Source: Candidatus Colwellbacteria bacterium (lineage in GTDB: Bacteria > Patescibacteriota > Minisyncoccia > UBA6257 > Colwellbacteraceae). From it: a DNA stretch of 25,384 nucleotides. This document shows, piece by piece, positions 8,716 through 15,823 of this stretch. Location of the stretch: NCBI GenBank assembly GCA_028711965.1, contig JAQTRD010000001.1:1-25384 (forward strand), written 5' to 3'. The position numbers and the translations under genes were made by a program. Within the stretch, counting starts at the first letter, position 1, and each line of letters starts with the position of its first letter. The notes beneath the pieces are model-generated. The model did no database searches. It was not told the DNA's origin and was given only the letters and a program-made list of their open reading frames with translations.

Positions 8716-8781
8716 ACAGCCGGATTTTATGAAGTGTAACGACGAAATGAGTTAAAACATTAGAATAGAAGATTTGTAATC

Positions 8782-8807
8782 AAAAATCCGCCTTACGGCG
8801 GACTTTT
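8782..8807. terminator. Bidirectional terminator between rplI and the minus-strand small RNA
   Basis: AAAAATCCGCC-TTAC-GGCGGACTTTT; GUAA (GNRA) loop and a G-U pair on the minus strand; T-runs on both sides. Confidence 0.75.
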
Positions 8808-8878
8808 GAAAATGGTCTTCGGGATGAAACATTCCTCGGTCATTGCTTTCGCAAAGTCGGAGACTGTTCCATTCGCTC
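8782..8878 (-). ncRNA. Candidate ~95-nt standalone structured small RNA (unclassified)
   Basis: Own promoter upstream, terminator downstream, no substantial ORF. Hand fold gives an 8-bp basal stem, a kink-turn-like motif and a GAAA tetraloop. Confidence 0.5.
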
Positions 8879-8883
8879 CGCGC

Positions 8884-8912
8884 ATAGTAGCATACTGTCT
8901 ATTAAAAGTCAA
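8884..8912 (-). promoter_or_regulatory. Sigma70-type promoter with extended -10 for the candidate sRNA
   Basis: TTGACT (8912-8907), 17 nt, TG-C-TACTAT (8889-8884). Confidence 0.7.
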
Positions 8913-8940: not shown

Positions 8941-9417
8941 CTAAAACTGGAGGCAAGAAGGAACTCCTAAAAGAGTTTCCCAACAAATCTTGAACACGGG
9001 ATGTTCATTTCCTATCTGCTTCAAAACGTCGCGTGCCTCATCGGTCCATCTGATATCGTATTCCTGGCGATTTTCCGCGTTGAAGCAATCATAAGCCTCA
9101 TCTTCGTTTGAAACCGAGAATAGCCCGAGAATGTCGCTTGTCATCCCTCTCCAGTTTTCGGGATCAACATATTCCAGATGCCGCCCGAGGCATGAAGGGT
9201 CTTCCGCGTCCGAAAAGCTATTGTCGGGAAAAAAGAAGATCAGCTGCCTGCCGATTGAAAGCAGAGGCGCCCGATGTTTTTCATTAAGGCTTTCACCTAC
9301 GGCAATCCTACTCGGACTTCCTTCTCTCCCTTTCAGCTTATTGGCATAAGGAATACCATCGATGGTTTGAACCAGATAAATCGAGTTCTTTGTTACAGCA
9401 ACGAATTCTTCTAACAC
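8941..9417 (-). CDS. Hypothetical protein
   Basis: 158-aa ORF, GTG start with G-rich SD, own promoter TTGACT-17-(TG)TACTTT at 9484-9456, and a downstream hairpin. Confidence 0.7.
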   Translation of the reverse strand: MLEEFVAVTKNSIYLVQTIDGIPYANKLKGREGSPSRIAVGESLNEKHRAPLLSIGRQLIFFFPDNSFSDAEDPSCLGRHLEYVDPENWRGMTSDILGLFSVSNEDEAYDCFNAENRQEYDIRWTDEARDVLKQIGNEHPVFKICWETLLGVPSCLQF

Positions 9418-12111: not shown

Positions 12112-12155
12112 TATTTTTACTTGACAAGCGACAATTAATATTGCTTAATACATTA

Positions 12156-12502
12156 AGCAGTCTATGTGATAGCGTTTCGCGCTTTTAGCGCGGGATGAGG
12201 AAAGTCCGGACACCATTCGCCGTTGAGGCGAAAAAATTCAGCAGTTAAAAGCTGCCCTCCGCCGATGAGGCGGAGCGAGGTGCGAACAGTGACGTCCTAA
12301 GCGAAAGCGAGGGAAGACCCGATCCCATCGAAGAAGGTCTAATTCCGCAATAGGGATAAGAAAGCGGAAGTGAAACGGCTAAATCCTTGTTGGGTGCAAG
12401 ACCGCGTTCGCCGATAAGGCGAAAGAGTTGCTTGAGTCCGAGAGCGATCGAGGACCTAGATAAATTATCACATACATACAGAATCCGGCTTATTGGACTG
12501 CT
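12156..12502 (+). ncRNA. rnpB: RNase P RNA (bacterial)
   Basis: Conserved GAGGAAAGTCCGG near the 5' end and ACAGAATCCGGCTTA near the 3' end; terminal helix AGCAGTC/GACTGCT; TTGACA at 12121; terminator directly downstream. Confidence 0.96.
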
Positions 12503-12505
12503 AAG

Positions 12506-12531
12506 AACCCGCCTTTACGGCGGGTTTTTTT
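12506..12531 (+). terminator. rnpB terminator
   Basis: AACCCGCC-TTTAC-GGCGGGTT followed by a T-run. Confidence 0.85.
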
Positions 12532-15608: not shown

Positions 15609-15703
15609 ATTTCCAATTTCTCCCCTTTCGGGGATCTCCCGCAGGGAGACAAATCTCAATTTCCAAAAGGCTGACATTGTGTTATATTTTCCTTGGACGG
15701 CGG

Positions 15704-15772
15704 ATGCGCACTCGCAAAACACAAATGGTTATTCGGGGTCACCACTGCCGTCCACTCAAGATCCGTCGATGA
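15704..15772 (+). CDS. Candidate 22-aa basic micropeptide MRTRKTQMVIRGHHCRPLKIRR (or coding-like part of an sRNA)
   Basis: ATG 15704 to TGA 15772, inside a unit bounded by an extended -10 (TG-T-TATATT, 15680-15688) and a hairpin (15758-15782). Confidence 0.4.
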   Translation: MRTRKTQMVIRGHHCRPLKIRR

Positions 15773-15782
15773 GACGGATTTT
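15758..15782 (+). terminator. Terminator-like hairpin with GATGA pentaloop
   Basis: AAGATCCGTC-GATGA-GACGGATTTT; the T-tract is short. Confidence 0.5.
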
Positions 15783-15823
15783 GCGTCTCAAGGTGGTATT
15801 ATATACATATATAAGGAAGTCAT

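Follow-up and report, generated by a model that had tools for sequence, protein, structure and literature searches.

What could a short RNA do that is transcribed towards the 3´ end of rplI and has no gene of its own to lead? This question is raised by an intergenic gap in the genome of Candidatus Colwellbacteria bacterium (GCA_028711965.1, 89% complete; the source genome). The window, the whole stretch of DNA analysed here, comprises positions 1–25,384 (25,384 nucleotides) of contig JAQTRD010000001.1. An earlier note, made from the letters of this window, had read the gap as encoding a stand-alone RNA about 95 nt long, which was given a kink-turn, a GNRA-capped hairpin and two mutually exclusive folds. 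The comparison of genomes leads to a different answer, which involves a second RNA. RNA A, as the RNA of the gap is termed here, and this partner, RNA B, appear to form an RNA–RNA pair that is new to description; a literature search on either RNA, their motifs and small RNAs of Patescibacteria returned nothing relevant.

Results

RNA A is a predicted transcription unit with conserved ends

RNA A is placed between the end of rplI (8715, forward strand) and the end of an unannotated 158-codon frame on the reverse strand (8941–9417). It is convergent on rplI and has no downstream gene. The TTGACT-17-TGnTACTAT promoter of the earlier note is present as described, and so is the terminator about 95 nt further on; the predicted start is near A8877 and the body between the promoter and the terminator measures about 70 nt (Table 1). 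rplI, on the opposite strand, could also use the terminator hairpin. The region contains 5 promoter-like sites compared with 2.4 ± 1.8 in shuffled sequences, promoter-like and terminator-like sites reach only about twice the shuffled expectation, and the folding z of the body without the terminator is −1.25, no better than shuffles. As features of a single copy, the predicted promoter, terminator and fold are not beyond chance, and it is the comparison that carries the evidence.

Table 1. Predicted features of RNA A and RNA B in the window.
Feature	Position	Strand	Remarks
−35 box of RNA A, TTGACT	8907–8912	−	read in the sequence; same hexamer in homologues
Extended −10 box of RNA A, TGcTACTAT	8884–8892	−	17-nt spacer to the −35 box
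RNA A, ~97 nt, predicted start to end of U-run	8781–8877	−	conservation with G001 spans start to terminator
H1a, 5´ tail GCGAAUG of RNA A	8870–8876	−	pairs with CACUCGC of RNA B; one A.C mismatch in the source genome
Long irregular hairpin of RNA A	8824–8872	−	P1 8 bp; P2 UCU/GGA, C.A mismatch, CG/CG; P3 4 bp with GAAA loop
10-codon frame MEQSPTLRKQ	8840–8872	−	judged non-coding
H2a, single-stranded linker CCC-GAA-GACCAUUUU of RNA A	8809–8823	−	pairs with AAAUGGUU and GGGG of RNA B
Intrinsic terminator of RNA A, stem AAAAGUCCGCC / GGCGGAUUUUU, loop GUAA, then U-run	8782–8807	−	stem sequence differs, pairing kept in homologues
Extended −10 box of RNA B, TGtTATATT	15680–15688	+	predicted start G15695
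RNA B	15695–15784	+	closing stem covaries; single copy in the source genome
Closing stem of RNA B	15695–15703 with 15745–15753	+	covarying
H1b, CACUCGC of RNA B	15709–15715	+	complement of the RNA A family 5´ end GCGAGUG
H2b, AAAUGGUU and GGGG of RNA B	15723–15730 and 15735–15738	+	complement of the RNA A linker
UCACC of RNA B	15739–15743	+	fixed in the search pattern
Terminator of RNA B	15761–15784	+	RNA B is a free RNA in the source genome

RNA A has a counterpart in a genome of the same genus (G001), and its 78% identity is confined to the stretch from the start site to the terminator. The two promoter hexamers are retained in G001, and the spacer and the segment from the −10 box to the start have diverged. 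The TTGACT hexamer, 17 nt from the −10 box, recurs in G001, G027, G073 and the metagenome homologues, and the TGnTAnnnT form of the −10 box is kept across homologues over a diverged spacer. A stand-alone RNA of about 95 nt is supported by the promoter, the terminator and this conservation from end to end. RNA A has no conserved open reading frame; it is predicted to be non-coding and independently transcribed, with predicted start and end positions, and there is little doubt in our judgement that it represents a real small-RNA gene.

Two further observations concern the surroundings. The 158-codon frame, which matches no Pfam family, has its own terminator-like hairpin (8933–8914) and parts RNA A from rpmA and pgk in the source genome only. 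A 40-nt stretch just past the rplI stop (8718–8757) has a 95% identical copy on a different contig of the source genome (C71:1915–1954, L007) and may be a small repeat.

RNA A homologues share one irregular hairpin

Clear copies in another genus, which score 58 and 54 bits, were retrieved with a covariance model of RNA A; the first model had included the terminator, and its matches were mostly unrelated terminators. A pattern scan of metagenome contigs yielded seven more distinct copies, all of which have a promoter of the same type and a terminator, and the close-homologue alignment contains 11 sequences. When a looser pattern was applied to 401 genomes of the order, 18 matches were obtained compared with 4 for a reversed control. 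Roughly 11 of these matches possess a promoter and a terminator and are real members. Distant members bear a different apical element, RCGAYGAUAUCGRY. This form was found by a scan of all reference genomes in about 31 Patescibacteria (labelled Harrisonbacteria, Colwellbacteria, Wolfebacteria, Jorgensenbacteria, Paceibacter and similar). Each copy has a promoter and a terminator of its own. A further 12 or so matches in unrelated phyla are attributed to chance. In genus g25, where a protein-coding gene precedes RNA B, the pattern search found no RNA A. These searches point to an undescribed family that is spread over one order of Patescibacteria.

The G-U pairs and the orientation of the promoter and terminator fix the strand of RNA A. 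The consensus fold of the 11 sequences is one hairpin, which starts with the 8-bp helix P1 (AUGGAACA/UGUUUCAU, 8872–8865 with 8831–8824), continues through a position that is mismatched in the source genome and A-U in most sequences, UCU/GGA, a C.A mismatch, CGR/YCG and an internal loop, and ends in a 4-bp GNRA-capped stem, whose GAAA loop occupies 8850–8847 in the source genome. Over 19 pairs, 95.7% of the cells are paired, compared with 36–45% for slid partners. Changes on both sides are observed at 6 pairs, where slid controls show no more than 2 such pairs; the four apical pairs all covary. The helices of the 11 homologues are therefore kept with compensatory changes, which bears out the GNRA-capped hairpin that had been folded by hand from one sequence. 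RNA A is best described as one predicted irregular hairpin, with a single-stranded linker between it and the terminator. Since the apical loop varies among GNRA types (GAAA, GCAA), the triloops GAU, GAC and UAU, and one 30-nt insertion, it is not the conserved business end of the molecule. An intramolecular pseudoknot (GGUC/GACC) is not conserved and was discarded.

RNA B carries the complements of the unpaired segments of RNA A

Across lineages, RNA B consists of a covarying closing stem of 9–19 bp, a loop of about 40 nt and a variable 3´ end, formed by a U-run, another terminator or the beginning of the gene that follows. In the source genome its predicted start, G15695, is the first base of the closing stem. 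Within its loop, AAAUGGUU complements the conserved linker GACCAUUU of RNA A, and GGGG complements the CCC before the linker. RNA B lies upstream of murB in the source genome, G001, G073 and G035. The murB ATG of the source genome (15824) lies downstream of RNA B, and murB has its own promoter there, apart from RNA B. Several lineages have RNA B as the 5´ leader of murB or secA; in the family of the source genome it is a free RNA with a terminator. It is found once per genome in 187 of the 401 genomes of the order, where the reversed pattern gives about 8 matches; in other orders of the class, 3 matches among 146 genomes are at chance level. Because members were gathered by sequence patterns, the invariance of GUGAGUG, CACUC and GRGGUCACC is partly circular, whereas the G.G that precedes CACUC is conserved though it lies outside the search pattern. 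In one relative, the region from RNA A to murB (L146:1650–1910) contains a partial extra copy of the 5´ motif of RNA B (GACGCGCACUCACUUAACAC), and the string GGAGGUCACCAC is repeated directly before the murB ATG.

Two predicted intermolecular duplexes are supported by compensatory changes

The first predicted duplex, H1, joins the 5´ tail of RNA A to RNA B. In the source genome, G8876–G8870 lie opposite C15715–C15709, and the A.C mismatch leaves 4 + 2 bp. H1 covaries from GCGAGUG/CACUCGC in close relatives to GUGAGUG/CACUCAC in distant ones. Three bases of RNA A that flank H1 also change in step with RNA B (UAA/UUA, UUU/AAA, UGA/UCA and GU/GC). At these flanking positions, 47 of 72 cells are paired in 24 genomes compared with 35.0 ± 2.7 after permutation, a level that none of 5000 permutations reaches.

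The second predicted duplex, H2, is formed by the linker. G8817–U8810 pair with U15730–A15723, and of the four G's at 15735–15738, three are matched by C8823–C8821. The cognate H2 duplex of the source genome has an energy of −18.4 kcal/mol, compared with a median of −4.4 kcal/mol with non-cognate RNA B loops. The sequence of H2 is lineage-specific yet complementary, as in AGACCAUUU/AAAUGGUCU, UCUAUUUGUG/CACAAAUAGA, UUCCAGUUU/AAACUGGAG and UUCUGUUUG/CAAACAGAA. G073 shows a paired one-base deletion (GACCUUU/AAAGGUC), and at locus L182 an A-to-G change is met by a U-to-C change. Over 24 genomes, cognate partners have a mean H2 energy of −13.3 kcal/mol and non-cognate partners one of −8.6 kcal/mol (0 of 5000 permutations). 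The permutation tests ignore the kinship between genomes, but the explicit compensatory changes are independent of them; RNAcofold cannot represent a complex with two sites.

In distant lineages and most relatives, A and B are tandem adjacent genes, A before B, and precede murB, secA, hpf or rplC. In the source genome the two are separated by 6.9 kb and read from opposite strands, and in the relatives each forms a transcription unit by itself, so that the pairing must act in trans. The comparison shows support for both RNAs, for their predicted folds and for the two predicted intermolecular duplexes. That RNA A actually pairs with RNA B in vivo is a prediction, which we regard as probable.

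Discussion

Two possible roles: a two-site antisense partner or one half of a bipartite RNA

RNA A would act through RNA–RNA pairing with RNA B. Its first 7–10 bases (H1) and its linker (H2) would both anneal to the loop of RNA B. H1 overlaps the first three pairs of P1, so that binding would have to open the base of the hairpin. H1, H2, the closing stem of RNA B and the hairpin of RNA A would together form a four-way junction. Such an arrangement is topologically strained if the RNA A hairpin and the RNA B closing stem are both intact, and the two duplexes may arise one after the other, or may require partial melting first. RNA A could thereby serve as a dedicated antisense partner that masks or titrates RNA B, which would double as the murB or secA leader in some lineages. 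We lean towards this explanation overall, an independent small RNA with two-site pairing to RNA B, from which we infer an antisense or titration role. No single regulated gene can be named, since RNA B is followed by murB, secA, hpf-secA, rplC or a terminator depending on the lineage. Genes for Hfq and CsrA were not found in the source genome.

The same two duplexes would also be expected if A and B were the two subunits of a bipartite structured RNA and the assembled particle were the functional entity, be it a scaffold for proteins, a catalytic RNA or the like. In that case, the four-way junction would be built from the closing stem of RNA B, H1, the RNA A hairpin and H2, and the short linker of RNA B would join the far ends of H1 and H2 in the manner of the D and T arms at the elbow of tRNA. 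Both RNAs occur as single copies order-wide and are usually adjacent, with separate promoters and terminators, and RNA B is free with its own terminator in the family of the source genome. H1 and H2 occupy nearly the whole RNA B loop, and segments outside the duplexes are conserved as well (the G.G before CACUC in RNA B and the UCC/GGA core in the RNA A hairpin), which fits an assembly. However, the searches identified neither a protein partner nor a catalytic motif, and the apical part of RNA A varies freely from GAAA or GCAA to GAU/GAC/UAU and a 30-nt insertion. The restriction to one order suits a regulatory RNA better than a core machine, and RNA B is merely the 5´ leader of murB or secA in several lineages. 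We consider such a bipartite RNA possible but unlikely, although on the narrower point of whether the role of the pair is regulatory or antagonistic rather than a joint two-piece assembly, our judgement is evenly balanced.

The genomic neighbourhood raises a third reading, in which RNA A is a cis-acting leader (a riboswitch or attenuator) of pgk that was orphaned in the source genome by an inversion. In all close homologues except the source genome, RNA A is upstream of pgk on the same strand, at a distance of 43–177 nt in G001, G027, G073, the seven metagenome contigs and some distant members. A GtrA-like or SIMPL gene is often found upstream of RNA A in relatives. The neighbours vary more widely, however, and include pgk, murB, secA, hpf followed by secA, a gene of the Rce1-like type and the rpsJ/rplC gap, and members from other families are followed by murB, secA, hpf or rplC. 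The orientation of RNA A relative to pgk is inverted in the source genome, where pgk is 1.2 kb away on the other strand and yet the promoter, the fold and the terminator are kept; because RNA A has no downstream gene there either, action in cis is impossible in this genome. Neither a conserved alternation of terminator and antiterminator nor any other conserved alternative fold was found. Moreover, pgk appears to have its own extended −10 box right after the terminator in at least G001 and G035, and pairing with RNA B accounts for the conserved unpaired segments. A pgk leader is accordingly very unlikely, and with its convergence on rplI and its variable downstream gene RNA A does not behave as a riboswitch or cis leader. 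As a separate observation, the extended −10 boxes (TGnTATAAT) lie a few bases before the pgk ATG (L002:1660–1695 in G001 and L051:1585–1612 in G035), which suggests that the pgk messenger is leaderless or nearly so in these two genomes.

We hold it still less probable that RNA A is a kink-turn RNA that is bound by an L7Ae-type protein and toggles between two folds, as the earlier note had proposed. The string UCC-GA-CUUUGC / GCAAUG-ACC-GA-GGA is literally present in the source genome, where the copy fits the order of C-stem, 3-nt bulge, tandem sheared G.A/A.G pairs and NC-stem, and an alternative pairing of 5 plus 4 bp (AAUGG/CCAUU plus GUCU/AGAC) can be drawn. The pattern is, however, not conserved. 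The GA of the non-bulged strand reads GG in 6 of 11 close homologues, which replaces the 1n adenine by G, and the 1n position and the last base of the supposed bulge covary as standard pairs (G-U in 5 sequences, A-U in 4, G-C in 1), with A.C in the source genome only. In distant members, continuous Watson-Crick pairs run unbroken across this region. The alternative pairing is unconserved and already degraded in G001 of the same genus, and no gene of the L7Ae family (PF01248) was found in the source genome (89% complete), where the controls matched. A kink-turn with L7Ae was rejected on the covariation and on the failure to find the protein gene, and the case illustrates that a kink-turn read off one sequence can be a chance pattern.

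Least credible of all is a 10-residue peptide: the ATG-initiated frame MEQSPTLRKQ does exist with a GGAG nearby, but its start codon sits within helix P1, only 7 of its codons remain in G001 and G027 and 2 in G073, its substitutions show no bias towards third codon positions, and the source genome makes no use of Shine-Dalgarno sequences.

Translation initiation and housekeeping RNAs in the lineage

A GGAGG in RNA B could suggest that RNA A masks a Shine-Dalgarno site. In the 16S genes of three genomes (L183, L184 and L185 of G111, G018 and G073), helix 45 is followed by AAACAAUUAAA without the usual GGAUCACCUCCUUUCU/CCUCC tail. Since GGAUCACCUCCUUUCU is absent, the 16S rRNA of the order has no anti-Shine-Dalgarno sequence. 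A core Shine-Dalgarno 4-mer is present at −18 to −8 in 12% of 435 ORF starts of the source genome compared with 9% in a control window, which is no signal. With neither the tail nor the signal, GGAGG cannot be read as a ribosome-binding site, and this candidate was dropped. A mimic of the tRNA-Ile anticodon loop (GAU) was likewise dropped because the apical loop is GAU, GAC, UAU or GNRA and its closing pair covaries.

RNA A was also considered as a divergent SRP (4.5S) RNA and rejected, as RF00169 and RF01854 do not match it and Ffh and FtsY were not found in the lineage. The SRP RNA models have no real match in 41 genomes of the order. The M domain of Ffh (PF02978) was found in none of 31 relatives and none of 81 genomes across the phylum, and the SRP54 GTPase domain (PF00448), which is common to Ffh and FtsY, in none of six genomes, three of which are 98–100% complete; the control searches matched in 13–14 of 14 genomes. 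SecA is present despite these negative searches for the SRP machinery.

RNA A, or A and B together, is not a split tmRNA, 5S rRNA or RNase P RNA, all three of which are found as normal genes. The tmRNA gene is in one piece (C27:923–1269 of the source genome, tag peptide ATSKVRVPAFAFA). The RNase P RNA (bacterial class A) is located within the window at 12154–12508 on the forward strand; a default Rfam scan misses it because its 96.2 bits fall just under the gathering score of 100.

Relation to known RNA systems

The earlier note recognised no riboswitch or housekeeping RNA in RNA A, and a scan of Rfam 15 that included permissive thresholds agrees with it: the best score is 21.7 bits compared with a gathering score of 54, and all matches are driven by the terminator. 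The best Rfam score of RNA B is 14.9 bits, and the distant A/B loci have no match. As judged from sequence comparison, the pair probably belongs with the base-pairing small RNAs, because RNA A has conserved complementarity to RNA B with compensatory changes, and the cognate partner beats the permuted ones in 5000 of 5000 permutations. Known small RNAs that have an RNA partner or sponge of their own include RoxS/RosA in Bacillus subtilis and GcvB/SroC and the ChiX/chb decoy in enterobacteria. In common with such pairs, RNA A is a stand-alone non-coding gene with a sigma-70-type promoter and an intrinsic terminator, its single-stranded 5´ end and inter-hairpin linker are the segments that would pair, its partner RNA has the matching sites, and conservation extends to about the level of an order. 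In contrast to these pairs, two segments of RNA A would clamp a single loop of RNA B in a permuted arrangement (5´ to 5´ site, 3´ to 3´), the two genes are usually adjacent, Hfq and CsrA were not found, and there is no known messenger target. The literature searched contains no base-pairing small RNA from Patescibacteria.

In enterobacteria, GlmZ and GlmY control the glmS leader. The likeness is that a small RNA pairs with the structured 5´ leader of a gene for a cell-wall precursor, as RNA B is the murB leader in several lineages. The two systems differ in that they share no similarity of sequence or structure, and in the source genome RNA B is separate with a terminator and murB has its own promoter. 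A and B could not act via a Shine-Dalgarno site, because the lineage does not use such sites. The permuted two-piece tmRNA and the T-box leader with its tRNA are RNAs joined in two pieces or at two sites. RNA A and RNA B would similarly be held by two separate helices, with a closing stem contributed by one of them; the tmRNA of the source genome, however, is a normal one-piece gene, and a search for T-box motifs found none in A or B. Kt-7-type kink-turns, which are bound by L7Ae or YbxF, are resembled literally by the copy of the source genome alone; they differ from the family in its Watson-Crick covariation, its unconserved pattern and the L7Ae-family gene that was not found.

Implications

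RNA-based regulation is little known in Patescibacteria, the candidate phyla radiation. The A–B pair adjoins essential genes of the envelope and secretion (murB and secA) as well as hpf. It offers a concrete and testable case, in which the predicted interaction is backed by natural compensatory mutations across an order. The genomes also provide a natural experiment, since A and B are in tandem in most lineages and unlinked in the source genome. If the two RNAs were instead the subunits of one particle, they would represent a new class, a bacterial non-coding RNA split in two, and not a regulator with its target.
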